64,000 nt of DNA from Antedon mediterranea. Lineage: Eukaryota > Animalia > Echinodermata. The DNA is taken from NCBI RefSeq assembly GCF_964355755.1, contig NC_092678.1:8138422-8202421 (forward strand), written 5' to 3'. This document shows, in pieces, positions 5,595 through 37,876 of this stretch. How positions within the stretch are numbered: the stretch's first letter is position 1; each line of letters begins with the position of its first letter. A model generated the notes under the pieces. It ran no database searches and had not been told where the DNA came from. It was given only the letters and a program-made list of their open reading frames with translations. The position numbers were made by a program, and so were the translations under genes.

Positions 5595-5805
5595 CCAAAT
5601 ATACATACTTTGGGCAGCTAATTGAGAAGTCATTGTTTGTGTTTTTTATTCGTGCACTGTGAACTGCATGCAAAACAGCAATTTTGCTGTTGTCTTCTTA
5701 ACTTCCAGAAGACGAGACGACAACTGGTGAAATTACTTACGCAGGCGCAGTGTCGCCAGTGGGCGTGGCTATCACTGTCAATCACTCGTTGTCTGAGCTC
5801 CCGTC

Positions 5806-12988: not shown

Positions 12989-13465
12989 GGAGCTATATTC
13001 GGACCATCAAAATGAAGACATGAACATGCTCATGGACATTGATTATTAACAACTTAGGGAGTTTTAAAGGAAGATGTGATTGGATATTGAGGGAGACCGT
13101 CATTTCGACAATCGAGCATTCTCTACTCTCTCCTAGTATCAAGTAGTGGAAACATGTTTTTTTTCCCTTCGTAATTGATAGTGTTTTATAGTAAAGTTTA
13201 AAGGGATCAGTGCTTATCAATTCAGTTACAGTATTATTTGTTTACATTTTCTGCAAAGTAGATGTGTTAATCCAATTCACTTCCATGATTTCCTCTAAAA
13301 GTTTTCTTTTGTATGAAGTGTAGAAACATTTCTTGAATTTGCGTTTTATTAATGTGTATCATTTTCATTTAGTTTTGTAGAACTTTTGTGAACCACTTTG
13401 GAAATCAATATATTTGTATTAATAAAGATTAAGTAAAATTAAGTAACCATAGCAAAATTAAAGTA

Positions 13466-14885
13466 CTGTGTTCCTGGGGTATCATTTTGGGTATATGGAA
13501 CACAATGCATTATATATGATGAATAAACCACTGTAATATGAGGCCGTTTTCCTATGTTAAAGCATTGTGTTCCTGGGGTATCATTTTGGGTATATGGAAC
13601 ACAATGCATTATATATAATGAATAACCCACTGTAATAAGCAATGAGGCCGTTTTCCTATGTTAAAGCATTGTGTTCCTGTGGTATCATTTTGGGTATATG
13701 GAACACAATGCATTATATATAATGAATAAACCACTGTAATAAGCAATGAGGCCGTTTTCCTATGTTAAAGCATTGTGTTCATGTGGTATCATTTTGGGTA
13801 TATGGAACACAATGCATTATATATGATGAATAAACCACTGTAATAAGCAATGAGGCCGTTTTCCTATGTTAAAGCATTGTGTTCCTGGGGTATCATTTTG
13901 GGTATATGGAACACAATGCATTATATATGATGAATAAACCACTGTAATAAGCAATGAGGCCGTTTTTCTATGTTAAAGCATTGTGTTCCTGTGGTATCAT
14001 TTTGGGTATATGGAACACAATGCATTATATATAATGAATAAACCACTGTAATAAGCAATGAGGCCGTTTTCCTATGTTAAAGCATTGTGTTCCTGTGGTA
14101 TCATTTTGGGTATATGGAACACAATGCATTATATATAATGAATAAACCACAATACGAGGCCGTTTTCCTATGTTAAAGCATTGTGTTCCTGGGGTATCAT
14201 TTTGGGTACATGGAACACATTGCATTATAATGAATAAACCACTGTAATAAGCAATGAGGCCGTTTTCCTATGTTAAAGTATTGTGTTCCTGGGGTATCAT
14301 TTTGGGTATATGGAACACAATGCATTATAGGCTAATGAATAAACCACTGTAATATGAGGCCGTTTTCCTATGTTAAAGCATTGTGTTCCTGGGGTATCAT
14401 TTTGGGTATATGGAACACAATGCATTATGTAATGAATAAACCACTGTAATATGAGGCCGTTTTCCTATGTTAAAGCATTGTGTTCCTGGGGTATCATTTT
14501 GGGTATATGGAACACAATGCATTATAGGCTAACGAATAAACCACTGTAATATGAGGCCGTTTTCCTATGTTAAAGCATTGTGTTCCTGGGGTATCATTTT
14601 GGGTATATGGAACACAATGCATTATATATGATGAATAAACCACTGTAATAAGCAATGAGGCCGTTTTCCTATGTTAAAGCATTGTGTTCCTGGGGTATCA
14701 TTTTGGGTATATGGAACACAATGCATTATATATAATGAATAAACCACTGTAATAAGCAATGAGGCCGTTTTCCTATGTTAAAGCATTGTGTTCCTGGGGT
14801 ATCATTTTGAGTATATGGAACACAATGCATTATATACAGTATAATGAATAAACCACTTCAATAAGCAAAAAGGCCGTTTTCCTAT
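13466..14885 (-). repeat. Tandem satellite, ~97-104-bp unit, about 14 copies
   Basis: Reverse complement of the unit ATAATGCATTGTGTTCCATATACCCAAAATGATACCCCAGGAACACAATGCTTTAACATAGGAAAACGGCCTCA(TTGCT)TATTACAGTGGTTTATTCATTATAT. Confidence 0.95.
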
Positions 14886-16879
14886 GCCTAATAATGCCAT
14901 ATTTAGAAACATAATTCATTGATTTCTGATATTCTGTACTTGTGTATGCATTACTAAAATAGTAGTTATTTTATTTCATTTATAATGTATGTATAAACAT
15001 TTATTCAGTTTTTTTTTTGTTTACATTTTTACATTTAAAAATTATAAAAATACCTATCTACCTTTCTGTTATTGTTACTATTATAATATTTTTTGAGGCA
15101 GATTGATTTCAATAAAAAAAATGTAAAACAATTAATTTGACTTATACTGTACTATGTTAGTTCAGGAGATGAAGTGTGTGTGGGCAGAATCTGGTGTATT
15201 TTTGTCACTTTAAGACCTAAATTAGATGTTTTCTGAAGAAAAGAAGTAAGCGGATAGGCTTTCAAACAACTCCAAGAAGATTCACACAAAAATAATTACT
15301 TCCCAATAAAATAGTATGTAACAGTGTATATACAACGAATTTAGGTTCAACGATTTGCCCCAAATAGGGGTGTTTTCCGATCGTGGTATACACTGTCTAA
15401 TGGATGTCCATCTTGAAAAATACCCGCCACAAAAATACGAGGAGGCTTCGCATTTTCCTATCTCCTCCTACGATAATTGTTTTTAATAGCTGAAAACTGG
15501 TTGAACAGCTAGAGTACAGCATCATAATGTTGAAGACAGGCCGATTTTCTTAAAAAAATACTATTTTGATAGATTTAATATACGATTATACAAATGTATT
15601 GATTTGCGATGAATGGAACATTCCAATCTCTGTTTCACAAGTGTCTATTCCCTCAGGCGTCGTAAAGGCAAGTACAGCACTGTATACTCGAAATTCGATC
15701 CATTTTTGTTTTCAATCTGTGCTGCAGAGGTTGGATATAATTTTTTTTTAAACGGATAATGAGCTAGCGTTTTCACTCGCCCTATATTATGTACAAATCT
15801 TTATTATTGCAGTTAAACCACCCACATCATCACCTTTCCCTCACTGGCATGAGTAGCGTTGTAAAACCAGTAGAGAATAGGCCTACGGTACATCACATGC
15901 CCTAAACGCAGAACAACTTTGGTGGGTAGGGTAGGAACCAACTTAAGTATGAATTGGCTCTAAGAAACAATTGAAAACCATTAGGCCTACTAATTAAGTT
16001 GAGTTAGATAATTTAATATTTATTGACGATTAAATCGAATTTATGATTTTCCCCGAATAGAGGTGGTTTTCACAAATTGTTTTACATTATATTATAAACA
16101 TATACACGTCGTAGTGATGTATCGTTACATGTGCTGTACTATTTCAATCGACTAGGACGGTGATAGTTTCAACAAAGTATTACATCGCAATGTTTTACTG
16201 TGTTTAGTGGTATATTATTTGTAAAACATGAAAGCAATTAATATTTCGTTACTAAATGGATAAAGAATATATTTTAACATTGTTCCTCTTTGCACCCATC
16301 CTCTTCCCCATCCCTCAACCCTAATGTTACATACAAAACACAAATTAAGTTTGTTTAAATTTGACTTAAACAATAGGTCTTATTTTGTGACAAGTTTATC
16401 TTTCGGAAGTAATAGAGTGCTAATTTTAGTTGAGTACATAAATCACAGTGTCTATTTATTCGTTCCTGTACACGACATGTATTATTGTCCTGCGGTACGT
16501 ACATTTGAAATCGCCAGTTTTTTAACGCTGAAATTATTATGTATTCGAGAACCATCTGTGGGCACGACCTAGTGGATAGAATTTTGCTTAAAAACATATA
16601 CAAAAAACATCGATAAAAAATACTTTTCGAATTTAAAAACATTTGAAACTTCTTTTATATGTTCAATATAGGTTGCTCTATTCACAGAAACAAAATTTCA
16701 TTCATGAACGTTTTTTGTTGGTTGTTCTTTTCAAAATCTTTATTAGGTTTAAAAAATGCTTTGGAATTGTATGGTCTTTCATAAGTGTACATTTTGTAAA
16801 AACGTAAATTTAAAAAATCAGTGATATGGCTCGATAGTTATTTTTTTTTTTGCAATATGGATGGAGCAACCTATATGGA

Positions 16880-19636
16880 ACATTTATATGGAACAAAATG
16901 CTTTAACATAGGAAAACGGCCTCATATTACAGTGGTTTATTTATTATATATAATGCATTGTGTTCCATATAACCAAAATGATACCCCAGGAACACAATGC
17001 TATAACATAGCAAAACGGCCTCATTGCTCTTTATTGTTATATAGTGGTTTAAACATTATATATAATGCATTGTGTTTCATATACCCAAAATGATACCCCA
17101 GGAACACAATGCTTTAACATAGAAAAACGGCCTCATATTACAGTGGTTTATTCATTATATATAATGCATTGTGTTCCATTAACCAAAATGATACCCCAGG
17201 AACACAATGCTATAATATAGGAAAACGGCCTCATTGCTTATTACAGTGGTTTATTCATCAAATATAATGCATTGTGTTCCATATACCCAAAATGATACCC
17301 CAGGAACACAATGCTTTAACATAGGAAAACGGCCTCATATTACAGTGGTTAATTCATTATCTATACTGCATTGTGTTCCATATACCCAAAATGATACCCC
17401 AGGAACACAATGCTTTAACATAGGAAAACTACCTCATTGCTTATTACAGTGGTTTATTTATCATATATAATGCATTGTGTTCCATATACCCAAAATGATA
17501 CCCCAGGAACACAATGCTTTAACATAGGAAAACGGCCTCATTGCTTATTACAGTGGTTTATTCATCATATATAATGCATTGTGTTCCATATACCCAACAT
17601 AATACCCCAGGAACACAATACTTTAACATAGGAAAACGGCCTCATATTACAGTGGTTTATTCATTATATAATGCATTGTGTTTCATATACCCAAAATGAT
17701 ACCCCAGGAACACAATGCTTTAACATAGAAAAACGGCCTCATATTACAGTGGTTTATTCATTATATATAATGCATTGTGTTCCATTAACCAAAATGATAC
17801 CCCAGGAACACAATGCTATAATATAGGAAAACGGCCTCATTGCTTATTACAGTGGTTTATTCATCAAATATAATGCATTGTGTTCCATATACCCAAAATG
17901 ATACCCCAGGAACACAATGCTTTAACATAGGAAAACGGCCTCATTGCTACAGTGGTTTATTCATTATATTATATAATGCATTGTGTTCCATATACCCAAA
18001 ATGATACCCCAGGAACACAATGCTTTAACATAGGAAAACGGCCTCATATTACAGTGGTTTATTCATTATATAATGCATTGTGTTCCATATACCCAAAATG
18101 ATACCCCAGGAACACAATGCTTTAACATAGGAAAACGGCCTCATATTACAGTGGTTTATTCATTATATAATGCATTGTGTTCCATATACCCAAAATGATA
18201 CCCCAGGAACACAATGCTTTAACATAGGAAAACGGCCTCATTGCTTATTACAGTGGTTTATTCATCATATATAATGCATTGTGTTCCATATACCCAACAT
18301 AATACCCCAGGAACACAATGCTTTAACATAGGAAAACGGCCTCATTGCTTATTACAGTGGTTAATTCATTATCTATACTGCATTGTGTTCCATATACCCA
18401 AAATGATACCCCAGGAACACAATGCTTTAACATAGGAAAACTACCTCATTGCTTATTACAGTGGTTTATTTATCATATATAATGCATTGTGTTCCATATA
18501 CCCAAAATGATACCCCAGGAACACAATGCTTTAACATAGGAAAACGGCCTCATTGCTTATTACAGTGGTTTATTCATCATATATAATGCATTGTGTTCCA
18601 TATACCCAACATAATACCCCAGGAACACAATACTTTAACATAGGAAAACGGCCTCATATTACAGTGGTTTATTCATTATATAATGCATTGTGTTCCATAT
18701 ACCCAAAATGATACCCCAGGAACACAATGCTTTAACATAGGAAAACGGCCTCATATTACAGTGGTTTATTCATTATTGTATAAATGCATTGTGTTCCATA
18801 TACCCAAAATGATACCCCAGGAACACAATGCTATAATATAGGAAAACGGCCTCATTGCTTATTACAGTGGTTTATTCATCAAATATAATGCATTGTGTTC
18901 CATATACCCAAAATGATACCCCAGGAACACAATGCTTTAACATAGGAAAACGGCCTCATATTACAGTGGTTAATTCATTATCTATACTGCATTGTGTTCC
19001 ATATACCCAAAATGATACCCCAGGAACACAATGCTTTAACATAGGAAAACTACCTCATTGCTTATTACAGTGGTTTATTTATCATATATAATGCATTGTG
19101 TTCCATATACCCAAAATGATACCCCAGGAACACAATGCTTTAACATAGGAAAACGGCCTCATTGCTTATTACAGTGGTTTATTTATCATATATAATGCAT
19201 TGTGTTCCATATACCCAAAATGATACCCCAGGAACACAATGCTTTAACATAGGAAAACGGCCCCATTGCTTATTACAGTGGTTTATTTATCATATATAAT
19301 GCATTGTGTTCCATATACCCAAAATGATACCCCAGGAACACAATGCTTTAACATAGGAAAACGGCCTCATTGCTTATTACAGTGGTTTATTCATTATATA
19401 TAATGCATTGTGTTCCATATACCCAAAATGATACCACATGAACACAATGCTTTAACATAGGAAAACGGCCTCATTGCTTATTACAGTGGTTTATTCATTA
19501 TATATAATGCATTGTGTTCCATATACCCAAAATGATACCACAGGAACACAATGCTTTAACATAGGAAAACGGCCTCATTGCTTATTACAGTGGGTTATTC
19601 ATTATATATAATGCATTGTGTTCCATATACCCAAAA
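16880..19636 (+). repeat. Same satellite in the opposite orientation, about 27 copies
   Basis: Same unit; variant blocks recur near 17260-17460, 18360-18480 and 18880-19080. Confidence 0.95.
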
Positions 19637-22040
19637 TTATGGTATATTTGGCTGCAAGTAACAAATATTCAGATACAAGTACTGTACATACACAAAATAA
19701 AAAATCTTTTATTAATTAGAAAAATATAATTACACAAAAAATACGGGATATTGAATGATAAAGACAATTACCATCCCATCGGCTTTTTACTGCAACGCAG
19801 GATTTACTTATTTTGAAATCTGTAGTGTCAGAGCGAAAGAAATGAAATTTTAAATCCGTTATTCTCTAAATAGAGAGTAGAGAATGATCGATCGTCGAAA
19901 TGACGCTCTCCCTCAATATCCAATCACATCTTCCTTTAAAACTCCCTAAGTTGTTAATAATCAATGTACATGAACATGCTCCTGTCTTCATTTTGGGGGT
20001 CCGAACATATCTGGAACTCGAGGAGTTACAGTACAGTATACTGCTACTAGTGTACTGTAGGCTAGTCATTTTGTGTGCGAGAAAAACGTCTGTAAAATCA
20101 TCAATTTAAAAATGTATTTGTTACTTTTTATGTGATTCTTTTTCATGAAAGTGCCAATTCTAAGGTGTGGTATTCAGAATAAATGTTGGGAGTTAAAATA
20201 CAAGGCAGGTGAGGTGCGAAAGATAAATATTTGTAATCTTAGGTGTTGGGTCTTAGCTTTCGTGATCTTAGGTCTTAGGGGGTCTGAGCTTTCGTGGTCT
20301 GAGCTTTCGTGACACCCGTGTGACGTGTGTGTGTGTTAGGTATGACCAAAGATAGTTACACTATAGTGTAACTATCTTTGGTATGACACAATCCGAGTAA
20401 TAAGTCAGCAAAATTAAACAATAAACATTACACAAAAATACATTTTTATTCTCGTGGGTCAAATCTTCCCATCTCATGTGTTCATATACGCGCATTTTTA
20501 AAGTTCCTTTGAGTACATGCATATTGTTTGATAATAAAATAGCAGAATTAAAAAAATACAGTACACAAATTATACACATTCTTTATTCTTGTGGGTCTAA
20601 GCTTTCTTTGGGCTATGTCCAATGAATTACTACTTAGTTTAATGTCTTGCCGTACTTGCCTAGCTGTCGATTAGCCTCGACTCGACACATTTTGTGTGAA
20701 GAGAAGAGTGCGCGAAGGCAATCACGTGAATTGACTTATAATCCTAGGCCTACTGTATGTAGAAAGTATCGTATCGCAGTTGTAATCACTTCTTGTTGCT
20801 ATACGCTTGGGTGCACACGGAACAACAAATTTAACTGATGAATTATTCATGTTTATTTTGTGACGTTTCATGAAGGGGTCCCCAACTTTATGTACGAAAA
20901 AAAAAATCGCTCCCGGGCCGATGACAGTTCGTCCCAATAGCTTACCGTGAACTAACGGAACTTTATTTTATATCTTTTTATTGTCAAAATCAAAAATTAT
21001 ACTGTATTCAAATTAATAGGCCTACTGTAGAACGAACGATAGGCATCACATTCTGAAGATTTTGCTCGATCGTTAACCCGTTATAATAGTATATAATTCT
21101 CTTAGATTTGTTTGTGTAGTGTCAATTCTATATTTAAATGGTCAGTATACAACCGGGTAACCTGTTTCTTCAATTTTTAAAAATGTATATTTTCTTTTGT
21201 TAATGGAGACTCATGGCAGGGATATGCAAACATTTAGAAGCGGGACGTCGACAATCTGTTGAAAATCGGGAGACTGTTGAATAGTCGTCTCATCCACAAG
21301 CCTGTGAGATAGAAAGTTGGGGGTTAGAGTGGTTAAGCCCGATAAAAAATCACCATCCTTAATAAAGACATGTGTAGAGAGTAATTCTTTTTTTTTGTAT
21401 TCACCACGAGCAATGCTTCAGAAGTCAGTTTTTTTACTTTGATGATGAGGACAATTGTGGTTGGCGGATCGAACTGGAACTTCATTAAACATGTCTTTTG
21501 ACAGTGTCGGTAAACGTAATACCGATATAAATAAACACCCGTTTTAATATCGTCACTAATCACATTGCAACCGTAACAAAATCGACAATTTTGGAGCGAA
21601 TATTTTTTATTTCAATCTTTGTTTTGAATGGCTTTTGTCTTTGTTAACGTTGACATAATGGCATAATTAAATGTTATTCTGAATTATGGAAGCCGTGAAA
21701 CAGATGATATGTCGCAGGAAACGATTGATTATAACCAAAATTTGCAGAACGCTGATTCCTATCGTTCGTTCTTTTTAGCTTTTTGTCAAATCATAATTTG
21801 AATATGTTCTGTCAAATTTGGCCTGGAAATATTTTAAGAGCTGGAATTAGTTTCCAGATCCACGCAAAGTGCGCATTAAAAACAAACTTGCGTGTCCTCA
21901 CAAGTGGGAACCGACGTGTTCAACACCGTTTATGCCTTACGTTCATCGTAATGATTCTCTCGTGAGGGGATGCAAAATAGAGTATTTTCTTATGTTGCGC
22001 GTCAATACGATACGTTGCGGCAGGATGTTTTTGTTAGTTA

Positions 22041-23909: not shown

Positions 23910-26900
23910 ATGAGATTTTATAGTTTTAACTTGTTCTTCGTCTTAATATCAACTGTAGGTAAGTTTGACGTATTATTTATGCTCGTTTAAGCTTAAGTAA
24001 TTGCTGTGTAGAAGGAATCAAAATATAGCATTAATTCCAGGCAAAACATGGATAAGAATAGAGTTCAGTGACAACTATGACTATTTATTAACTGGAAAGT
24101 GGAAATAAGTTATTTTCCAACACTGCCCATCGTAAATATTTTCAGGCTGTGGGCTTACCATTGATGGAGCTAAATCGACCATGGTAGACCAGCAACTACC
24201 TTCTACAATCTAATAAATTCGCATTTTATAAACATTAGGGATATTTCCGATCAAAATCAAATGACTGTTAAATACGCAATAGTACTACTGTTTCTAGAAA
24301 TCCAACTTGTGTCTTATAATTTAATGTAAATTAATTGTTTTATATAAAAGGCTAATGATGTTTAAATGTCTTTTCTGTCCAAAAGCTGCAAGTTATTGCT
24401 TCAAGAGCTACGCAGAGAAGAGTGGTGGTAACTCGCGATGTAAACAGCGATTAACAGGTCTAGGTAGTGAAACAAGCGAAAAGGATTGTTGCCAGCATTC
24501 TAGTGCCGCCGGATTTTCCAAACATCGGAAGGGTTCACGTTGCACGCCATGTAATAGGCCTAGCCCAACAGAGATAAGTTCAGGTTAGGTCATATGTTTT
24601 ATATTTATTAACTGCAAATAAACGTTTGTTTTAATATGATTAAAGGCATCACTACTGTGTATTCAATAGTATACAAATAATGAATGCTTATGAGTGTAAT
24701 GGTACAAATAATGGCATGAGGTGAATGATGAACCTTTACACATATATACATAGCCTATATCTCTCCAAAAATGTACTTTCATTGCGAAACCAGTCATAAC
24801 ATTCAATCTTCGCGGCGAAAGTACAAAATAGGTGGCGTACACGAAAAAAGTAGTATTAAACGATAGTTTAATAGTGCGTATTATATAACACCTATATAAA
24901 TTCCTGTCATTTGATTGGACGAATGTGGGTCACATGGCGTGCAATAGTACGCACTATTCAACGATCGTTAAATAGTACTTTTTGAAACATTTTTGTGTAC
25001 GAAAAAAAACGTCTAGATGTTATATAAAACAAATAATGAATGTTTTGTATTCGTGTAATGGTACAAATAATGGCACTTGGTGAATGATGAAAGGTTATAT
25101 CAACTCGGCTTTGCCTCGTTGATATAACCTTTCATCATTCACCTCGTGCCATTATTTGTACCATTGCACTCATAAACATTCATTATTTGTATACTATTGC
25201 ACGCCATGTGACCCACAATCGAATGACAGGAATTTATTTAGGTGTTATGTAATCTATCGATCGATACTGTATTGGACAATCAGAATTATTTTTATTCAAA
25301 ACTAAGACATAACAAATAGTACTATTACAATAATGACCAAAACGGAGTGTTTTTGGAAAATTGATAACCAATTAGGCCTAATCTGAACTTGGTGAGAAAC
25401 TTTCACTATCTAATAGTACAAAACCAACATGCTAAACTACACTGTATGACTGGCTGCGTGTTTGTTCGCATCGAAAAGGTTTCGAAGACTTTGAAGATAT
25501 CTTTTTATTTAAGAAGACCTTCTATTCACCACATTTGTTTCCTCAATAACTGTCTCTATTTTGTTTCTTTATTTTAGTTTGGACAGATTGGAGTGACTGG
25601 CGCCCGTGTAGTGTGACTTGTGGTAACGGAACTCAGCTTAGGTACCAAACGTGCCAATCGCATGCCTGTTCCGGAAATCCTGTTGATATTCGACCTTGCA
25701 ATGATCAAGACTGTCCAGGTAAATAAGTATTTCAAAAAGTTACAAGGCACAAGTTGAAAAGTCAATCTGAATTGTTGCTCCTGAGTTACCTTGCCGCGCC
25801 TAGAAATAAAAATCCAAGACAAAGCAAACGAAACAAAAAAAATTTGAATAGGACAAGCTCAGCTGTTTTTTACATCTTGTTCAGAAGATGTTGGTAGGGC
25901 GTGTAGGGGCGTGGTTGAAATGATTGCATGTTTGTCGTTTATCGCTGAATTCAAGAATTGATCCATTTTAATTAATCTATGTTTTTTGTTTGTCAGTGGC
26001 CGTAGATGGTGGATGGACACGTTGGAAAAGATGGAGCTCTTGCTCGGTGTCATGCGGGAAAGGTTATCAGTATCGTGTACGAACTTGTTCAAATCCACCG
26101 CCATTGTACGGGGGCCGTCAGTGTGTAGGCAAAGATAGTATCGTAAGATCATGTACAGTCCGAAAATCGTGTGCTGGTACGTTTCAATGAGTTTTGTTAA
26201 TGACAATTAGAGAATTAGTACACTATACAGGCAATATTACAGTATTTAGACACACTGTCAATAAATTAGATTCCCCTACTGTCTACAGGATGATACTTCC
26301 AACAGTCAAGGGAGTTATTTTTGTAGTGAGAAAACATCCACACAGCAGACAGCATATGACCCCATAACCCTGGAATTGGTAGTCATTTACACATAAGACA
26401 GGTTATACTGGACAATTCTGCTCTAACAAAATATATAAATAATTAGTCAATAGATCAAGCCAGAAAGTAAAAATAAACAAATCATGTTCCTTATATTGTT
26501 TCTGTTTGATACTACAGTTCATGGAGGTTGGAGCCTATGGAGCAGTTACTCGCAGTGTGATAAAACATGCGGTAACGACGGTATGAAAGTACGAACTCGT
26601 AGCTGTACCAATCCAGCTCCAGCGAATGGCGGTGATGACTGTCGTGGACTTGCTCTTGATAAATCTCCATGCACTGATCTTAAAGCATGCCCAGGTATTC
26701 AAGAGTATTACCTGTGTTCACACGCACTGAAGTTAATCGTGCATATAAACCACTTTAGCTGATCCGATCATATCATATCATCCGAGCATGGAGGTATTAT
26801 ACCTCCATGATTTGAGTTACACCCGACGCTGTTCGTGTGCTGCTCCGTAATTCTCTTCGTTTCATTAACTCTTACTTCCAATAACTCCGATAGGTTTTAG

Positions 26901-28784
26901 ATACATAAAATGTAACTTTTCCGATAGAGTTCATAATAAATGTAACGTTAGACAACTGATAGGATTTATAATGGAAGTATATCAGATTTAACCAGTGCGT
27001 TTGAACACAAAACAACTAAATAACATGCATTATTGTCTGTAGGATTTATCTCCGATCGAGAAAGGCATATTGATACAAGTGAGGTCATAGAAAAAGACAA
27101 TACTGACTGCCTGCTGCCCGATGTTTTTGACTTTCTGTTATCAGTACTATCTCTTTACAATCTAAATTTCATACCATTTTCATCTTACAGTTGATGGTTC
27201 CTGGTCTACTTGGTCGGCATGGTCTGGGTGTAGTGCAACGTGTGATACTGGCATTCGGATCAGGACAAGACTATGCAATTCTCCTCGTCCACAACATGGT
27301 GGTAAAGATTGTCCTTCGGAAAGCAGACAAACAAGAAACTGTACAGCGCATGTCAGGTGTCCAAGTAAGTCACAATTTGCAAAAACTAGTGGGATTCAAT
27401 ACCCTCCAAGACAGAGTAAAAACGCTTTGAATTTAAGTAGTTTGCCATTGATTCTTTCCTGAGTGGATTTCCACTAAATAGCCCAACTCTCCGCGTTTTG
27501 TGTAAATGGTCAAATAAAATAGATTAGGTTAGGCCTATATATATTTTTTCCGCTTACCGCGTCACCGCTCGTCTGTGTAAACTGGCCTATATGCGTATTA
27601 CTGTATCATTAAAATATATAGTAGAATTTTAGAACTAGGCCCTATCTGTGTTTTAAATTTCCAGTTGACGGAGGTCTGACAGAATGGTCATCGTGGAGCA
27701 ACTGTGGCGCTGCTCAATGTGGTGCAAAAGGTCATCGTTACCGCCGTCGACACTGCACAAATCCTGCTCCAAGATATGGTGGCAATCCTTGCTCAAATAA
27801 GAATGCAGTCATGAAAGAATCTTGTATCAAAGACTGCACAGGTCAGTGTGCTTTGTTGCTAAAGCTTGGTTCCCGTTAGGACGTACGCAATCAAATTTAC
27901 CAATGAAAAGCGACATTTCGAATAATCCATCGCATTATGATTGGTCAAATTAATCGCGTTGCGCGTATGTCTCTGCGGTAAGTCCTAGTGGGAGCCAAGC
28001 TTAACATGATTCTTAACTTGCATCAAATCATTAATGTTGCCACTAACAGTACAAATAAGTCCCCTATGTGGTGCAGTACTTTGAGTTTTTACACGGATGT
28101 GGCTTTTCCACGTATGGCACAGTTCCTATGTTTACGATATCTTAATTTGTTTTGTTTATTTTCTACGCAGCAACAAATGTAGCAGCAGTTCCTGTAAAGA
28201 AATGCAGACCTAAGGTTAAACCAACACAGAATGCCCCTGTGTCAGCTTCTTCATCAATTGGTGAATTATCATATCCCTCCTATGAAGATCCGGCGTCTTC
28301 CAGTACTAGTGCTGACGAAGAACCTTCATACATTGATCCCGGTTTCCCGCCAATGACACGCATGTTACAGAAAACAGCACAGCATGAAAAGAATTTACGC
28401 GTAGACCCACCTCTACCGGACGGATTTCTTTCGTATTCAGAATCCAGTAGTGTTTCTATTGATATACAGTTAAGTGACTTAAGTCTTGGGAAAGAGAAAC
28501 CTATCGAGAAAAGCACGAATCTTCAACAGAAGAAACCAACTGATACAGTATCTTTTTCGACTTCTATTTCTGTTTCGAGCGACGCCAGTCTTTTCCAAAA
28601 GAATGATGGAGACGTACATGCAGAGGTAATTACTCCTTCTCCTCCTGTAGATGAAGACCAACCATCGTTTAGTTTTAACGAGGAATTAGAAGACTGTGAA
28701 GAAATTGAAGAGGTTTTAGAAGTATCTTCTGTGTCAGAGTCATCTTCAGCTGATCAGCCGTCATTCAGTTCTAGTAGTAATTAG
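23910..28784 (+). CDS. Properdin-like secreted protein: signal peptide, TB/TSR0 domain, 5 thrombospondin type-1 repeats, Ser/Glu/Pro-rich tail (~569 aa, 8 exons)
   Basis: Exons 23910-23958, 24386-24583, 25578-25718, 25997-26176, 26518-26694, 27191-27364, 27665-27841, 28171-28784; all GT-AG, phase 1. Exon 2 CFKSYAEKSGGNSRCK...SEKDCC...CTPC resembles the properdin N-terminal TB domain. WxxWxxCSxTC and RxRxC TSP1 motifs occur in exons 3-7. Confidence 0.85.
24672..25250. repeat. Rearranged repeat with a long hairpin (possibly a Crypton-like non-autonomous element) in intron 2
   Basis: ~70-bp stem around the loop CTCGGCTTTGCCTCG (25030-25192); 24672-24735 is a further arm copy; 24880-24950 is inverted at 25193-25250. 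Confidence 0.5.
27863..28001. mobile_element. Harbinger-type MITE, diverged
   Basis: AGCTTGGTTCCC...GGGAGCCAAGCT with TAA TSD. Confidence 0.65.
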
Positions 28785-29720: not shown

Positions 29721-32700
29721 TTAGTTAGAGATTCCAAACTCACGTAACCAAGCTAAGTATTTTGATACTTTAGTGTAAACACCAAATTCTTTCGGCAGTC
29801 CACATTGGTCAGGACTTCCCCAACTTACTATTCCCTCTAAATACCAACTTTTCATTTCACCTGTCCCTCGTGAGAAAACCATTGGGCTACCGCTATCCCC
29901 GGTGCAACTGTCAACCCCGCCCTCTTCAAAGCCGGCACAAAACATGTTGCGTGTGACAAAAATGTTAATATTTTCAGGATAAGAATCTCGGTAATTTCGT
30001 TGACATCTCTGAAAAATAAAACAAACATTTTAATATTCTTGTTGATGTATGCCTGAGTTCATGGTTTTACATAGGCCCTAGAGTAGACATCCTACGACAT
30101 GATTAGTCATACAGCGCATGCGCGCGCTGGAAGACCACCGTCCTTTTACCGGTGGTGGAAACGGGGTGTAGGCTCTACACTTTATTTGACTCATTATTTA
30201 CAAACCTAAAGACATTTAATGTTGATACTACTACTAATGTTAATACATACCAGTCTTGAAACTACAGGAATTATAGCTTGCTGAAGAACTGTAGGTAGTC
30301 CTTCACCAGTTCTCCCCCAGCCTGTCAATACCCCTTCCTTACCGGGTCTTAAATTGCGTTTTGTACTCGATATGGACGGCAGACATACGGGTCGAACACG
30401 CGCCGTAAATTCTATCGGTGTCTCAAGTCTCAAGACAGCAATATCGCTGTCTAGTGTAGATGGGTTGTAATTGTGGTGTACAAAAAAGTCTGCAACCTAA
30501 ACACAGAAGAATTACAAGCTAAATCTATTTGTAGAAAAATCATCTTGTAAAAGGACAGTTTCTTCTGGGAATATACTCATCATGCATCTGCTTCGTATAG
30601 CTAGCTCCGCCCATTGCCGCCATTTTTTAAAATTCTAAAAATATCATGCGGATGTGAACTTTTTGCGAACTTTTTATATCGTTGTTGCCTTTATTGAAAC
30701 AAACCTTTGGAAATGAGTGAGTGTCATAAAAAGGTCAGCGAGACTTTGGTGTTCATCGTACAGGTTTGTCTGCAACCAACAAATAAAGCTACCTAGGCCT
30801 AGACTAGGACTACTACTAGTAGTAGTAAAAAAAAATGTTATTTATTCAACAATGGCATTATACAATAATATAATTATAGGTGTGTACATAAATGAAAACA
30901 TAGCAATAAGCCATCATTTGGGGTCTTCTCTAGAAGAAAACAAGTTTCTTGTCTCGAGAAAGACCCCAGTAGTAGTAGTACTAGTAGTAGTAGTGTAGTA
31001 GTAGAGCCGCATAGTAGGTAGTATAGCATGAACACATTTCATTTGTTCATGGTAGTATACTTAGCCTAGCCGTTGTAGTAGACATAGGGCCTACATCGGT
31101 CTTTAGTTCATTGTCTTGAACAGAAAATCGTGTAGGCCTAGGTCTACTTACATTTCTTGACTGAATCCACTCCTCATCTCTTTTGTGATGAGTCCGGTAA
31201 TACTTCCCTACTTCTACTTTAAATAAGTGGGTAAATCTAAAAAAAGAAAAGACAGATTATCAATAAATAATCTTAAATCATTCACATTAACAAAATAGAA
31301 ATTCAGTAGGCCAAAACATTAGTTCAAAACAAAAGGTTGCAAGTACCATAGCACAGTTTGATGAAATAACAGTATAAAGTATGAGAGAATAACATACAGT
31401 TCGAGAGTTTTTGGTAGTCTGATTTCACGAGAATCGGTCGAACCATTTTAGAAATGCTAAGCTCAATCTAGTTTCGTGATTAAGACTCTTACCTGTCTTT
31501 AACACAATGCGCCGCTGTTACAACTAATGTTTCAGTAAGGATTGAAGCGCCACAGATTAACCGTTTACTACCAGTGCCATTTTTGTACTTGTAAATTGCT
31601 ACATTCCAAGGCCACATGCCGCCTATCGTATCGTTTCCACCAACAACATATGCCTGTTTTTCACCACTAGCTTTTCCACAAACTTTGAAAGTAACGGAAA
31701 GGTGGATAGTTAGCGTGTTGTATAAGAATTGCCACGTGGTCAAGTAAAATAAAGTAGTCCCTGTAAAATAAAAATAATATTTTCTTGGTTTGAACACATC
31801 AATGCGTCATTTTGTTGTCATTTACCTACCTGGTTTGCATGTAGGAATGTGCCCTCTCCACTTTCCACCAGAACACGTAAGATGCGAAGATCCGTAGAGT
31901 TGATATAAGTTAGACTTGCAACTGTAGGCTAGCTGCGTCCCATGTGTAAAGTAACCTTCTGTGAGGTAGTTGTTTTGTTCCTGTTCTTGGTCTTCATCGG
32001 CCATAAATTCCTCCTCTATGCCAGACGTCGATATGCTATCACTACTAGAAGCGGAACTTTCGGATGAAGCCAATGATGAGCTTTGTACTATTCGTGTCCG
32101 ATCAAAGCTGCTTAATAACCAAACTGTATTGTTAGTAGATGTTTACAAAATGGAAATGGATTTCAGTTGTTTGCTCAGATCTGGATTCAAATCAGATCTG
32201 AAACACCATTCGTAGATACTAGTCTAATAAAAAAGGATACATTCCAATACCATGAAATTAACTGAAACAAATATGGCAAATACCTTCTAGTCTTTAAAGC
32301 AGGCTGTGAAACTTGACGGACGCTGTATTTTGGAATACCGGGATCGTGGCACGACGTTTCTGTAATGAATGCGAATCAATAATTGTTCATGTACTGTAGC
32401 ATACTTTATTTCTTTAATTCACTATGTTTGGCAGTGAATACATTGTTAACGAATTGAAAGTGAAAATCTCACCTTCAAGACAAACTGGTTGGTCACCACT
32501 CCAACTTCCGGTCGTCAAGCAAACCCTAGTTTCTTCTCCTTTAACCATTGTAAAGGTATTTCCACACGAGAAAGATAGGATGTCTCCGGCGTGAAATGTA
32601 TGTACACTAGCATCAGGAACCCGAACAATATTTGGTCCAACTCCCGGATCAGGGCACGATACGTCTTTAACTGCATAATGTGAAATATGTTATTTTAGAT

Positions 32701-35700
32701 GCTATAAAGTAGTGTTTGTAAAAGTTATTGAAGGATTGATTTCATTGGTCGGCTTGTCTGTCAAGACATTTTTTTTAAAGTAAAATCTGCGATCTGTCAC
32801 ATATCGACTACTGTTGTTCGCTTTGGGGTTCCAAAGGTAATTGCATATTCTCTCGTATCCAACATTTGCGGAACCGTGCTTTTCGAATCATTCTTAACTG
32901 CCATCCTCATATCCGTTCTTCTTTTCCACTCTTAACTTAATGTTTATAGCAGAATTTGTCTTCTACTTGGTTGTCTTGCTTTCAAAGCAGTCACTGGTTC
33001 TTCCTCAACCGTTTAAAAAACCCATATTACCCGTCAAAGTATGTGTACTCGATCAGTTACTATGGGCCATTTTTTTGTTCCTAAACCTGAACTTCAAAAT
33101 TTGTTTTTTATTACAGAGTCACTTTCTTTCTCAATTCTCTCCCCTTTAGTTACAATATATCTTATTTTGAAATTTTGATACTGTATGCATAAAAGACTTT
33201 TAATACATGTATGTACTACTAAAATGAAGGATTATAATAGGCCTACTCTTTGCTAAAATGTAACGACAAATGTCGATACAAGAAGACACCACTGATCTGA
33301 ACCTTGGTTTGAGAGAAACATGACAGGAAATTGTTGACGTTTTTAAAGGGTAAAATGAAAGAGAACGCATAACTTACTGCACTGAGGAGTATTGCCTGAC
33401 CATTCACCGTTGAATTTGCACAATCTTGATTTTACATCTGGCTTAGAAAAAATGTAATTCTCTTCACATGTATAAGATACAACACCTCCAAACGTAAAGT
33501 TGGTTGCATATAGAAAACCATGTTCTGGGATATCAGGTATTCCGCATTCGACAGGGTCTAATAAGGAAAGGCAAGAGAAAAATTTATTATGCATATTATT
33601 CTCTTTAATTTACATATCCGTCTATTTTTAAAGCTTTCTTACTAAATTAATGTTTTCCGTTAATTACCCGTATGGTACGCAAATAATATTGAATTTTGTT
33701 GGATTAAAAAGTTTGTATATGCTGCAGAAAAAAAAGCCTGTAACATTTTTTCTTAATTAATTTATTTTTATACAATTTATTTATTATGCCCAATTCTGGT
33801 GTTCCACGGCCAGTGAATAAAATAACCCCGGTATAATTACTTTAGGAATATACCATAACAAACTATGTATAATATTTTTCTATATTAGATTAAAGTTTAC
33901 AGATAAAAAGGGATATGGCTGGAATATAATATATATAATAAACCTAAATCAATTTTTATCCATTTATCAGTTACGTGTGCTCTAGTTCTTTTAAAATTTT
34001 CTCACGAAAGAACTCTAGTCCCAACGACTTATATAACGTCTGTTTATGACGTGTTCTTAAAGTGTGTATGTTTTTCTTTGATCACGTATAATATTAGAGG
34101 GCATTGACAGTTATTGAATTCCGTTTTGGAAATCTTTGGCAAAACGCCTAAAAAAGCATATATATGTTAATAATGGACATTGTATACCCACCGCATATTG
34201 GACTTGTTTGTGTCCACTGTCTATCGGGTCCGCATAGCCTCTCGCCAGGTCCTCTTAGGGTGTAACCTCTGTTACATGTGTAGGTGGCTCGAGATCCCTC
34301 TAGTTGTACCGCTTCATCGTCGTCTAAGGCAACGCTCCCGTATGTTGGACGTTTTGGCCTGTCACACTTTGCAACTAAAAGTATAGGCCTTATTTTTTTA
34401 TTTCTTACATTTGCACGGGATGGATGTCGACGACATTTTATTGACACGGAAGGTCGATCATAAATAAACTCTCGATAAAAAAAACTTACTATATTATATA
34501 TATACCAAGCTTATTATCTTGACATATTTACAAAACACATTTAGGCCTAAATGGGATCATAATTTTGTGTAATTTAATGTGGAATATATATAATTTGTTT
34601 AATATACAATAAACAAAAGTATTGTAAAAGAGTCAATAATTATATATTAATATATAGGGCCTAGATTTCCCCCCGTTTTTTTTACAAAAAAAAAAAAGAA
34701 AATGTGCAAATGTCAAAGATTTAAGAAAAGAAAATATAAATTGTAATATATATTTTTTACCACAAACGGGAGGAACTCCTGACCAGGTACCATCTTGTTT
34801 ACAATCGATTCTATCCAAGCCGCTTATTTGATACCCGTTCAAACAATCATACAAAATGCTTCTAACAACGGATGTTCCAGGAACTGACGTTACGATTGCT
34901 AGGCCGCCATTTGGTGTCTCTAATGCTTCACATATGGGCTCTACAATATAACAGGACAATAGCCTCAGTCTACTTGAAAGTTAACTCATTTGTTAAAAGT
35001 GAAACTAAGAAATTTTAGGCAAAATTCCCTCAAACTAGTTTCGAAACATATTTTCCAATGATTCATAGAAACAGTCGGGATAATATTGATAATTGATGAG
35101 AACAACATGAGAACATTATGGGATAATTTGTGACGTCTATGAAAGTGACCTACAGTTATATTGTAAAGTGTTATTCTCAGTAAGAGGGTATTTGCCTTTT
35201 ACTCCCAAAACTTCATGTTCTTCTCCATTTCAGTCAATATTAGTAATTTTTGACTCAATTAGTACTCGCGTACTGTAATGTAATTCAGTAATTCAATGAG
35301 GCATACAAAACAAGAAATAACTCAAAACAAGTATCAAGGCTAAAAAGACCACAACACATTAGACCTAATGTAATTCAATAGTTAAAGTGACAAATATCTA
35401 GAAAAGACATGATTATGAGGTCTTACCACATTTAGGAAGATCACCAATCCAGTCTCCATTAAAATCACAAAGAAGTCTGGAAGATCCAATCAATTGATAG
35501 TTCTGGTTACACATGATGGTCACAGAACTTCCACCGATGAATTGTTGCAGTGATTTTTCAAGCCTAGCATTTGGTGGCACAGAAGGATATGGGCAGTACA
35601 CTGTAAGCAAAAAGCGGTCAAGATCATCGTCAATTTCCAGCAATTTAAAGACAATGTTTAATTATCGCCGTTACAATAAATTGCCTTTGTCCACTTACCG

Positions 35701-37876
35701 CTGTCAGGCAGTACAATACAAATGTTTTATATTTATTATCATTAATTATCGTTTTATTGATTGTGTAGTATAATATGAGGAGTTCTGAGTTTTTCCATTT
35801 ACCTGGTTTTCGTCTTTCGCACTTATCACCTTCAAAACGATCTGAACACATGCAGGTTCCGTTACTATTGCACTCTCCATTGTTCTGGCAGTGACAAACT
35901 TTAGACATGAATTAAAATAAATAGTATAACATATTTTATTGTTGGTTAAAACTTGAATTTAGCTAAAACTTGTAATTTGAATCTATGGAACTCATTACAG
36001 TATTATAAACAATGAATAATTAATTATGAAAACAAAAATAAAAACAATGTGACCTTTCTTTCTTTCGTTCTTAAAAAATGAAGACCTACTTACTCATGTC
36101 ACACCACTTTCCATATCGATCGGAAGGACAACTGACACAACTATCAACGTTATTGTCGCAGGTTTGGCAGTATTGATACTGGGCGCATTGAGCGACAAAA
36201 TCTAAATCTTCGTTACATTCTTTGCAATATGGCCGCCAGCGATAAAAATACGTGCACCTGTTTGTTTCAGAAAAAAATATCGTTTGAAATAATATCGTAC
36301 GGTATTATATAATATAATATATAGCCCTATATAATATATAGGTGCAGGTGTTCTATATAATATAGAACACCTGCATTAAAACTGTTGAATATTACGGTGG
36401 CATTCCGCATGGATTTATTTTGTAGAAATCTAGATCTAGATTTGTCAACAATCTTCGAAACATAAATTTGATGTTTTTTAAACGTATGTAGCAGGTACAA
36501 CAGAGAATGATGAGATTCAAAGATAACTCTCCGAGTTGGATCGACATCATCACCTTCATCGATAATGTTGGGCCATTATTTTAATCGGTTCGGCTATTAT
36601 AGTTTAGTCTTATATGATGGGAACATTAGCCCCATAGCAGATGACTTGCGTGCATCTATTTTGTGTGTCTTTCAATCTGTTGATTTCATTGCGTTGCGTG
36701 TTAGTGGGAACTAAGTTTTAAACAACCAAGAGAAACAATATTGTAATCTAAATTATGTATTGTCCCCCAAAAACATGAAAAATTAAGATTAATATTTAAT
36801 AAAATCTGCAGAGCAGATGACTTGCGTGCATCTGTTTTGTGTATCTTTTCAATCAGTTTTGTTTGTATCTGAACATTAACATTAAAATTGTCATTTCTAT
36901 AACATATTTAATATACAAAATCCGATCATTTTGTGAACATTACTATATTTGGAAAAAGTTGGGTTTTTAAGAGTTTCAAAAAAGTTGTCACTGACAGTGA
37001 GCAAGTTGTTTTAGTAAGGTTAGTTTTGTTCATAATTGTAAAGAATTTTAAATAAGATAAATATAAGAAATTGTCTACCTTTCGTAACTCATAGAGAAAG
37101 TTCTTTCCGTTTCTCCGCACGTGCAGTAGTTTCTACCATCGTCGCATCCAGTAGGTATACCAATAGCCTGGATGCATTCCAATAACGCTACTACAACACA
37201 AACGGCAAACAGAGTTGCTGTTGGAAAAAATAATGCCAATACTATTTTTTTTCTCCAAAGAAACTTTAAAAACATCAGGTTTACATCAACATATGCTGAG
37301 TTCACACTAGAACGCAACGTAAAGATAGATGCAACTCAAGGATTAACCAGCGACGGATCAACAGTCAAGTTAAGGCCAACTCAGACAGCGTCGTATGACG
37401 AAAATTAAACAAGTTTCTCGTGACGACCTAAAAACTACGTCCGACGCTAGAGGCCCTATATCAAAACAACTCGTCTCGTCGGGATTCAACTCAGACAGTA
37501 CCGACGAGTCAAACTTGCAGAAGTTATGAGGGCTGTCTGAGTTGGCCTTTACTTGCGTTGCGTCCTAGTGGCAACCAAGTAATGTACAGTGGAAACAATA
37601 ACATGAGATTTTTTAGAAAAATATTAATAGATAGTTTTTCGACATACTCTAATCCAACTTTTAAGTTAGTATAGATAAAAAGTGCGCAGCAAAACTAACA
37701 ACCTGGCTGACAATTTGTTACCGACTTGGTCAAAGTGAATGTATATGTGACATTAAAATAGCATTTTAACAAAAGAATATTTTTTCGGGAGAATGCATCT
37801 GTGAAGATAAAAAAAAATGTGTTTTAAAAGAAGAAATTTAAATAGTTTTAGACATACCTCTAACTGCAAATTTCAT
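29721..37876 (-). CDS. Limulus clotting Factor C-like modular serine protease: signal peptide, Cys-rich domain, EGF, 6 CCP/sushi, trypsin-fold protease (~831 aa, 15 exons)
   Basis: Exons 37876-37858, 37217-37079, 36257-36094, 35898-35803, 35600-35427, 34940-34761, 34374-34192, 33557-33378, 32670-32473, 32359-32284, 32107-31830, 31682-31493, 31236-31152, 30496-30251, 30008-29721; phases are consistent. Exon 3 encodes CTYFYRWRPYCK...CVSCPSDRYGKWC. Catalytic triad TAAHC / DIAVL / GDSGS. Confidence 0.9.
37373..37548. mobile_element. Harbinger-type MITE nested in an older MITE (~37296-37580)
   Basis: TIR AGGCCAACTCAGACAGC; TTA TSD. Confidence 0.7.

Follow-up and report, generated by a model that had tools for sequence, protein, structure and literature searches.

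A predicted Factor C-family protease gene, expressed in the crinoid Antedon mediterranea, keeps the RWR tripeptide reported for lipopolysaccharide binding in horseshoe crabs

Factor C of horseshoe crabs (Tachypleus, Limulus, Carcinoscorpius) is the lipopolysaccharide (LPS)-activated zymogen of the Limulus amebocyte lysate (LAL) and recombinant Factor C (rFC) tests, and the endotoxin tests based on it are what drives the harvesting of horseshoe crabs. In T. tridentatus, the LPS site lies in the Cys-rich region and contains Arg36-Trp37-Arg38; when this tripeptide was mutated, neither LPS nor Gram-negative bacteria were bound (PMC10672452). The basic residues are assumed to contact the lipid A phosphates and the aromatic residue the hydrophobic part, and the lectin-like and CCP4 domains also contribute to LPS binding (PMC10672452). 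As far as the accessible text of PMC11836539 goes, the marks of canonical horseshoe-crab Factor C are RWR, an RS site between the heavy and light chains, an FI site between the A and B chains and the active Ser, and diverged duplicates without RWR are described there. Factor C is also an LPS-sensitive C3 convertase, according to the accessible part of PMC7962413. In the present study, we analyzed a 64,000-nt stretch of the genome of the crinoid echinoderm Antedon mediterranea (the window; coordinates below are positions in it) and found that the minus strand at 29721-37876 carries a 15-exon gene, expressed as a spliced transcript, whose predicted product is a Factor C-family zymogen with the RWR tripeptide intact. 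This gene has already been named 'clotting factor C-like' by NCBI, and as such is no discovery. The new part is its reading as an expressed, putative deuterostome ortholog with an intact LPS tripeptide, belonging to a family of short forms spread across Bilateria.

Exons joined by a script gave a protein identical letter for letter (831/831 residues) to P0001, an 831-aa model that NCBI names 'clotting factor C-like isoform X2 [Antedon mediterranea]'. By tblastn, residues 7-831 of P0001 were placed at 37218-29724, and exon 1 (ATG at 37876, encoding MKFAVR) lies 640 bases upstream of exon 2. All of the 14 introns have GT..AG borders, and the stop codon TAA is at 29721-29723. The original prediction, made from the letters of the window, concerned 36094-37217, where it saw a Factor C Cys-rich domain with the LPS-binding RWR; the peptides quoted in it are present on the minus strand, and its ends coincide with exon borders, 36094 with the 3' end of exon 3 and 37217 with the 5' end of exon 2, so that it spans exon 2, an intron and exon 3. 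Exon 2 follows the acceptor ...ccaacag/CAACTCTG, reads ...IGIPTGCDDGRNYCTCGETERTFSMSYE and ends at a phase-2 donor, AAAG/gtagac; exon 3 completes the Arg codon, reads CTYFYRWRPYCKECNEDLDFVAQCAQYQYCQTCDNNVDSCVSCPSDRYGKWCDM and ends at the donor A/gtaagt. As had been remarked in the prediction, exon 3 is missing from the start-codon-dependent list of open reading frames (ORFs; at least 40 aa), and it is open in the stop-to-stop list. In order, the minus-strand ORFs between 29.7 and 37.9 kb encode the Cys-rich exons, an EGF module, five complete sushi domains, a split sixth sushi and four trypsin exons. An in-frame ATG in the exon-2 ORF (MFLKFLW...) was considered as a start and rejected, as both the transcript contig described below and the NCBI model splice from exon 1. 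The features of the gene are as follows.

37858..37876, minus strand: exon 1, ATG and MKFAVR(A), start of the signal peptide; found by pattern search, with the joint from 37217 to 37858 in the contig of run X1 (see below).
37079..37217, minus strand: exon 2, remainder of the signal peptide (inferred cleavage ...IQA/IGIP) and the Cys-rich region up to its third Cys (GCDDGRNYCTCGETERTFSMSYE).
36094..36257, minus strand: exon 3, Cys-rich region with nine Cys, CTYFYRWRPYCKEC...YGKWCDM; 100% identical to P0001.
36233..36241, minus strand: the RWR codons CGC TGG CGG, encoding Arg59-Trp60-Arg61 (precursor numbering; 35-37 in the predicted mature chain).
35803..35898, minus strand: exon 4, EGF-like module; Pfam EGF_laminin 1.4e-5, six invariant Cys columns.
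35427..35600, minus strand: exon 5, sushi 1; Pfam Sushi 8.2e-9.
34761..34940, minus strand: exon 6, sushi 2; Pfam Sushi 7e-9.
34192..34374, minus strand: exon 7, sushi 3; Pfam Sushi 4.7e-11.
33378..33557, minus strand: exon 8, sushi 4, at the place of the LCCL and lectin-like domains of LCCL-bearing forms; Pfam Sushi 3.8e-10.
32473..32670, minus strand: exon 9, sushi 5; Pfam Sushi 4.2e-9.
32284..32359, minus strand: exon 10, first part of the split last sushi (CHDPGIPKYSVRQVSQPALKTR).
31830..32107, minus strand: exon 11, linker insert (Ser/acidic) followed by the rest of the last sushi; Pfam Sushi matches at 1.6e-5, and only over profile positions 11-56.
31493..31682, minus strand: exon 12, activation site ...KQAY/VVGG (Tyr574-Val575), start of the protease and catalytic His621 (TAAHC); Pfam Trypsin.
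31152..31236, minus strand: exon 13, protease (GKYYR... stretch); GT/AG borders after a +2 shift.
30251..30496, minus strand: exon 14, protease with catalytic Asp672 (DSDIAVL); Pfam Trypsin 1.4e-19.
29721..30008, minus strand: exon 15, end of the protease, S1 Asp769, catalytic Ser775 (GDSGSP) and stop TAA; Pfam Trypsin 3.1e-19.

Five public sequencing runs hold the stretch. One of them (run X1) comes from another study and year than the four DNA-like runs and holds 26% of the sampled words, approximately the share of the exons. Its label as RNA is a guess, and we rely on its spliced contig rather than on the label. In this run, a single contig of 2757 nt (depth 104) joins all 15 exons, with all 14 joints present (CT..AC as plus-strand intron ends), among them 36255(+2) to 37077 and 35898 to 36094. 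In a DNA-like run (run X2), the introns are covered and none of the 14 exon joints was found. The contig reaches 229 nt past 29700, and the 3' untranslated region continues below that position. The one difference between contig and window that was examined, in the codon of the catalytic Ser, is synonymous. Since every intron has been removed at its GT..AG borders, the contig represents a processed transcript; the gene is expressed, as a spliced transcript.

The predicted protein consists of a signal peptide, a 12-Cys region with CTYFYRWRPYCK, an EGF module, five sushi domains, a split sushi with an acidic and Ser-rich insert, and a trypsin-like protease. The EGF exon had been expected after exon 3 and is found there as exon 4. 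A source outside chelicerates had also been predicted, and the crinoid agrees with that. With exon 3 by itself (54 aa) as the phmmer query, 1.84 billion representative proteins yielded 14 matches at E<=1e-3, namely P0001, nine N-terminal matches in a single stretch (E 7.7e-10 to 7.8e-4, covering nearly the whole query, at target residues 47-118) and four proteins in which 5-16 scattered stretches match and neither sushi nor trypsin occurs; these four were set aside as unrelated repeat proteins. The match is well beyond chance, and in each of the nine other representatives, the 12-Cys region is N-terminal in a sushi-trypsin protein or in a fragment of one. With 50% clustering and this E cut-off, no sea urchin, sea star, brittle star or sea cucumber was among the 14 matches. 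The nine include proteins named 'Limulus clotting factor C' from the centipede Hemiscolopendra marginata and the spider Araneus ventricosus (a fragment), 'clotting factor C-like' from the hemichordate Ptychodera flava and from Branchiostoma floridae, and 'limulus clotting factor C-like' from the chiton Liolophura sinensis and the brachiopod Lingula anatina. Of the remaining three, which are unnamed, two (P0014 and P0015) have an LCCL domain, and P0014 shares 80% identity with a spider protein. One B. floridae entry from an older model (P0020, 1075 aa) has its Cys-rich domain at residue 412, after an HLH match and without EGF; this gene model has probably been fused or mis-spliced, and the newer one (P0012, 332 aa) begins at the signal peptide.

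It had been asked of the Factor C match that the alignment should extend beyond the short motif, and it does so. In an alignment of the N-terminal part of ten sequences (114-122 residues each), including the hemichordate, amphioxus, chiton, brachiopod, centipede and a spider-like LCCL-bearing form, 24 columns over 115 residues are invariant. Cys fills 18 of them, with the Cys-rich region contributing 12 and EGF 6. Furthermore, F33, Y34, R35, W36, Y39 and K41 are nearly invariant, while the identity between the crinoid and other phyla is 37-46%. Another crinoid protein, 'limulus clotting factor C-like [Anneissia japonica]', is 81% identical in exon 3 and 68-81% identical as an ortholog. BLASTP of P0001 against a protein of the spider Hasarius (P0027, 'Limulus clotting factor C-like') gave two colinear blocks, with crinoid residues 7-327 on spider 4-326 (E 4e-40) and crinoid 384-827 on spider 554-995 (E 1e-92). 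In a 13-member alignment, the family has in common a last sushi split by an insert before the protease, an aromatic P1 residue and C-terminal signatures. An unrooted tree built from the C-terminal 330 residues of 14 members joins the crinoids to the hemichordate (82/86), which fits vertical descent. Because the N-terminal 115 residues align with all 18 Cys columns invariant, the gene product, judged by its sequence, is a true member of the Factor C family and not a coincidence of motifs. It resembles the arachnid Factor C orthologs (spider P0027-P0035, and tick IrFC as described in the accessible part of PMC7962413) in its colinearity at both ends, its 12+6 Cys and its basic-aromatic-basic tripeptide, but the arachnid forms carry LCCL and RWK, whereas the crinoid protein has RWR and is approximately 170 residues shorter. 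The short factor C-like proteins (Anneissia, Ptychodera, Branchiostoma, Lingula, Liolophura, Hemiscolopendra) share with it the LCCL-free architecture, the N-terminal domain, the split last sushi and the activation region. Ptychodera and Anneissia have exact RWR and Tyr at P1, as in Antedon, whereas the others mostly have RWK; they have 3 to 7 Pfam sushi stretches and are known as database models only.

The RWR tripeptide is intact, as predicted, and as Arg59-Trp60-Arg61 of the precursor it occupies positions 35-37 of the predicted mature chain, compared with 36-38 reported for T. tridentatus. We sought the motif C-x3-[YH]-x-[WF]-x in 35 gathered proteins, and 27 carry it, many of them being isoforms or spider orthologs and thus not independent. 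The tripeptide of these 27 is RWR in 5, RWK in 21 and QFK in 1, i.e. basic-aromatic-basic in 26. Exact RWR was found in three crinoid entries and two Ptychodera isoforms; among the motif-bearing proteins, crinoids and the hemichordate alone share the exact tripeptide reported for canonical horseshoe-crab Factor C. The 115-residue fragment was modelled with AlphaFold2 from the ten-sequence alignment (mean predicted local distance difference test score, pLDDT, 85.3); strands 29-34 and 37-42 of a four-stranded sheet are predicted to form a hairpin with RWR at its tip. A PDB sequence search with exon 3 gave no match at E<=10, and Foldseek with the N-terminal model gave none in PDB at E<=1e-3, with weak rows of EGF repeats only. 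With a wide VIA-align search, 9 of 48161 chains reached Z>=2, and residues 55-115 match EGF repeats of SCARF1 (Z 4.5) and Tie2 (Z 3.2); for the RWR-bearing residues 5-55, there are only rows at Z of about 2, which does not show a new fold. A search of the ESM Atlas with residues 26-108 gave a best score of 0.83, under the lead level of 0.9.

The protease domain (Pfam Trypsin 1.7e-58 in P0001) has an intact triad, His621 (TAAHC at 618), Asp672 (DSDIAV at 670) and Ser775 (GDSGSP at 773), which together with S1 Asp769 (DSC) predicts trypsin-like specificity. The activation bond at the start of VVGG joins Tyr574 and Val575, and most relatives have Phe-Ile/Val at this place. The P1 residue is aromatic in 11 of the 13 aligned family rows: Tyr in Antedon, the other crinoid and the hemichordate, and Phe in the centipede, the brachiopod, amphioxus and six LCCL-bearing rows (four named spiders, P0014 and P0015). 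In the other two it is Val (chiton) and Thr (P0006). An Arg-Ser pair (KTR/SF, residues 469-470) at the start of the linker insert is a candidate counterpart of the horseshoe-crab RS site. A second NCBI isoform has one extra Ser at the exon 10/11 junction (32107/32284; KTR/S(S)F), at the start of the linker. The difference between isoforms X1 and X2 looks as if neighboring splice sites were used alternatively, and its position is that of the Arg-Ser pair, a possible match to the chain-cleavage site.

Horseshoe-crab Factor C was compared by its published description rather than by sequence alignment. Like it, the crinoid protein has a Cys-rich N-terminus with RWR, then EGF, three sushi domains, later sushi domains of which the last is interrupted by a linker, and a trypsin-like domain. 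The activation bond is aromatic-aliphatic in both, FI in horseshoe crabs according to the accessible text of PMC11836539 and YV in the crinoid, and the active-site Ser is common to them. The sushi domains differ in number, six in the crinoid (three, one, two) and five in horseshoe-crab Factor C (3 + 2). The linker insert is rich in Ser and Asp/Glu, whereas a Pro-rich region has been described for horseshoe-crab Factor C (PMC10090249).

On these grounds, we consider it probable, with moderate confidence, that this gene encodes a Factor C-family zymogen, predicted to be secreted, whose Cys-rich domain binds LPS through the retained RWR, and that this binding would trigger self-cleavage. By analogy with horseshoe crabs, the tip of the RWR hairpin would contact lipid A, its basic side chains meeting the phosphates and its Trp the acyl part, and zymogens crowded on an LPS surface would cut one another at Tyr574-Val575. 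The two chains would presumably stay disulfide-linked through the usual Cys pair (PVCGK at 564 and PVCLP at 692), and the activated enzyme would cleave a downstream substrate after Arg or Lys. Echinoderms have homologs of C3 and factor B, and to our knowledge no coagulogen is known from them. Thus, a C3-type complement protein or another protease may be a more likely substrate than a coagulogen, that is, a complement-type target rather than a clotting cascade.

The following points weigh against this reading of the crinoid protein as an LPS-triggered zymogen. In the literature searched, no data on LPS binding or activation were found, either for the crinoid protein or for its relatives outside chelicerates. 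Folding, rather than a ligand, could be the reason why the FYRW..Y.K stretch is nearly invariant. The N-terminal Arg of Factor C is said, in the title of a 2014 report by Kobayashi, to be essential for autoactivation. Unlike that of horseshoe-crab Factor C, the predicted mature crinoid N-terminus is Ile-Gly-Ile-Pro (IGIPTGC), with no Arg nearby; the signal cleavage after ...IQA was placed by eye from the -3/-1 rule, with no predictor. The active-site motif is GDSGSP (29883-29900, minus strand; AGC = Ser), compared with GDSGGP in all of the 12 other aligned rows, including Anneissia; no letter difference is listed for this AGC codon in the transcript contig. The branch of the crinoid protease is long (1.39). 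Homology to horseshoe-crab Factor C at the level of residues goes via the spider and centipede intermediates. No horseshoe-crab sequence was among the matches of exon 3, residues 1-160 of P0001, the LCCL-bearing P0014 or the representative search, which we read as a limit of word indexing and 50% clustering and not as an absence. The homolog look-up gave two matches with exon 3, both crinoids, the same two (of 45 candidates) with P0001 1-160, and ten with P0014, namely nine named spider proteins and P0014 itself.

A further point against this reading concerns the middle of the protein, where horseshoe-crab Factor C has an LCCL and a C-type lectin domain and the crinoid protein has neither, with one extra sushi there instead. 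No Pfam match to LCCL was found in any exon ORF or in P0001. Between the two BLASTP blocks, the crinoid has 56 residues (328-383, one sushi) compared with 227 in spider P0027 (327-553), in which Pfam finds LCCL at residues 337-417; thus, there is no room in the crinoid protein for LCCL plus a lectin. In the domain map of T. gigas Factor C, the C-type lectin-like domain follows LCCL. Pfam at E<=1e-4 reported no Lectin_C even in the LCCL-bearing forms, so that Pfam alone is a weak test for the lectin. LCCL was found in 3 of the 11 family members scanned (P0014, P0015 and P0027; 1.4e-17 to 5.8e-21), and the LCCL-bearing rows form one clade (96/93) in the unrooted tree. The crinoids, the hemichordate, the centipede, the chiton, the brachiopod and the unnamed P0006 lack LCCL and have only sushi and trypsin in Pfam, and the amphioxus model P0020 shows extra, probably fused, N-terminal matter in the Pfam scan. 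From this small sample and unrooted tree, we infer that the short form is the older one and that LCCL and the lectin are a chelicerate insertion.

An alternative reading is that the protein is a true Factor C-family protease in which the conserved R-W-R/K hairpin has a ligand other than LPS (a different polyanion of microbial or host origin, a membrane or a partner protein) or is kept for the fold alone, and that an upstream protease or lectin switches the zymogen on. LPS sensing would then be a specialisation of chelicerates that came with LCCL, the lectin and the N-terminal Arg. The confinement of LCCL to the three chelicerate-type rows of one clade agrees with this, as do the reported contributions of the lectin-like and CCP4 domains (PMC10672452) and the failure to find functional data from outside chelicerates in the literature. 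Arg is absent from the predicted mature N-terminus of Antedon, Anneissia and Ptychodera, although the chiton P0007 has one. However, the tripeptide that LPS binding was shown by mutation to require is exact in crinoids and the hemichordate, 26 of the 27 motif-bearing proteins have one of its kind, and the odd aromatic P1 of the self-cleavage site is kept as well. Furthermore, the horseshoe-crab duplicates thought not to sense LPS are those without RWR, as far as the accessible text of PMC11836539 describes them, so that RWR is seemingly not needed for folding. We therefore regard a non-LPS role of the hairpin as a possibility to be taken seriously, but on balance rather unlikely.

Two further explanations question the protein or the gene itself. 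A generic sushi-trypsin protease of the complement type (MASP, C1r or factor-B-like) might have been misnamed by automatic annotation, with the motif a coincidence; the name 'limulus clotting factor C-like' is indeed attached to many animal proteins, and the whole-protein PDB matches are led by complement receptors, factor H and MASP-1/2. These matches are due to the sushi and protease domains. In MASP/C1r/C1s, too, sushi domains immediately precede a trypsin-like domain; these zymogens become active on a recognition surface and give the best solved-structure matches for the protease part, but they have a CUB-EGF-CUB front and an Arg-Ile activation bond, whereas the crinoid protein has the Factor C 12-Cys region and Tyr-Val. 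Pfam found no CUB or vWA domain in the exon ORFs or P0001, and a MASP-type protease was set aside for the lack of CUB. The 12-Cys region is specific, with only the nine other representatives in 1.84 billion, and the spider Factor C match is colinear at both ends; misnaming of a generic protease is thus very improbable. The other explanation, that the locus is a decaying or silent copy with leftover open exons, could appeal to GDSGSP in place of the usual GDSGGP and to the long crinoid branch. Yet all 15 exons are open and all 14 introns are bordered by GT..AG, the full-length spliced contig at depth 104 comes from a run of another study, and the only coding difference checked in it is synonymous. 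In addition, the triad, the S1 Asp and all 18 N-terminal Cys are intact, and the Anneissia ortholog is well conserved, as given above. A pseudogene is contradicted by the spliced transcript and the intact sites, and we give a decaying copy hardly any credence at all.

If the crinoid protein is indeed an LPS-triggered zymogen, Factor C-type candidate sensors would be placed in deuterostomes, and echinoderm complement would gain a candidate microbe-sensing initiator. The crinoid gene and its hemichordate, amphioxus, chiton, brachiopod and centipede relatives keep the domain and the tripeptide counterpart of LPS binding, and this leads to two testable questions, whether an LPS-triggered protease is ancestral to Bilateria, with LCCL and the lectin added later in chelicerates, and whether a smaller, non-chelicerate Factor C could serve as an assay reagent. 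Going further, Factor C might be an ancestral bilaterian endotoxin sensor, with the short form as the original one, still self-activating on LPS in ambulacrarians and feeding C3/Bf complement, so that the crinoid and hemichordate enzymes might be usable as reagents free of horseshoe crabs; we put this forward tentatively and think it doubtful as a whole. The gain is limited, because the gene had been annotated automatically and its function is argued by analogy. No analysis of the Factor C Cys-rich domain or RWR outside chelicerates was found in the literature, of which subscription journals (e.g. Dev Comp Immunol) were little covered, and a prior mention is possible. Peptide words of the crinoid protein had no match in the literature text, nor in the text and supplement of one paper, and PMC11312191 does not treat Factor C. 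According to the accessible part of a 2026 bioRxiv preprint, one type of sea-cucumber coelomocyte is marked by an automatically annotated 'limulus clotting factor C'.

The neighbor of the Factor C-like gene on the plus strand, at 25550-27876, consists of five exon-sized ORFs, each with one thrombospondin type 1 repeat (Pfam TSP_1, 2.3e-14 to 4.6e-6), and converges on its 3' end. Three of the five ORFs score weakly for a properdin-type TSP1 model, below the cut-off. Farther away, a retrotransposon gag-pol frame at 5797-8697 (plus strand) has a zinc knuckle, a reverse transcriptase and an RNase H in Pfam, and contains at least one break in the frame, between 7203 and 7378. A 104-bp satellite forms arrays at 13458-14886 (14 copies) and 17043-19637 (25.5 copies), with 92-93% matches and in mutually opposite orientation, and the ORFs within them are repeat artefacts. 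Within the introns of the Factor C-like gene, the stretches 36550-36823, 37372-37645 and 30796-31069 have a contig depth from tens to approximately 2000 times that of their neighbors in both runs, and are high-copy interspersed repeats. Intron 2 also holds two 40-nt copies (36633 and 36809; 93% alike, 176 bases apart) and a perfect 16-nt palindrome at 36343-36375.

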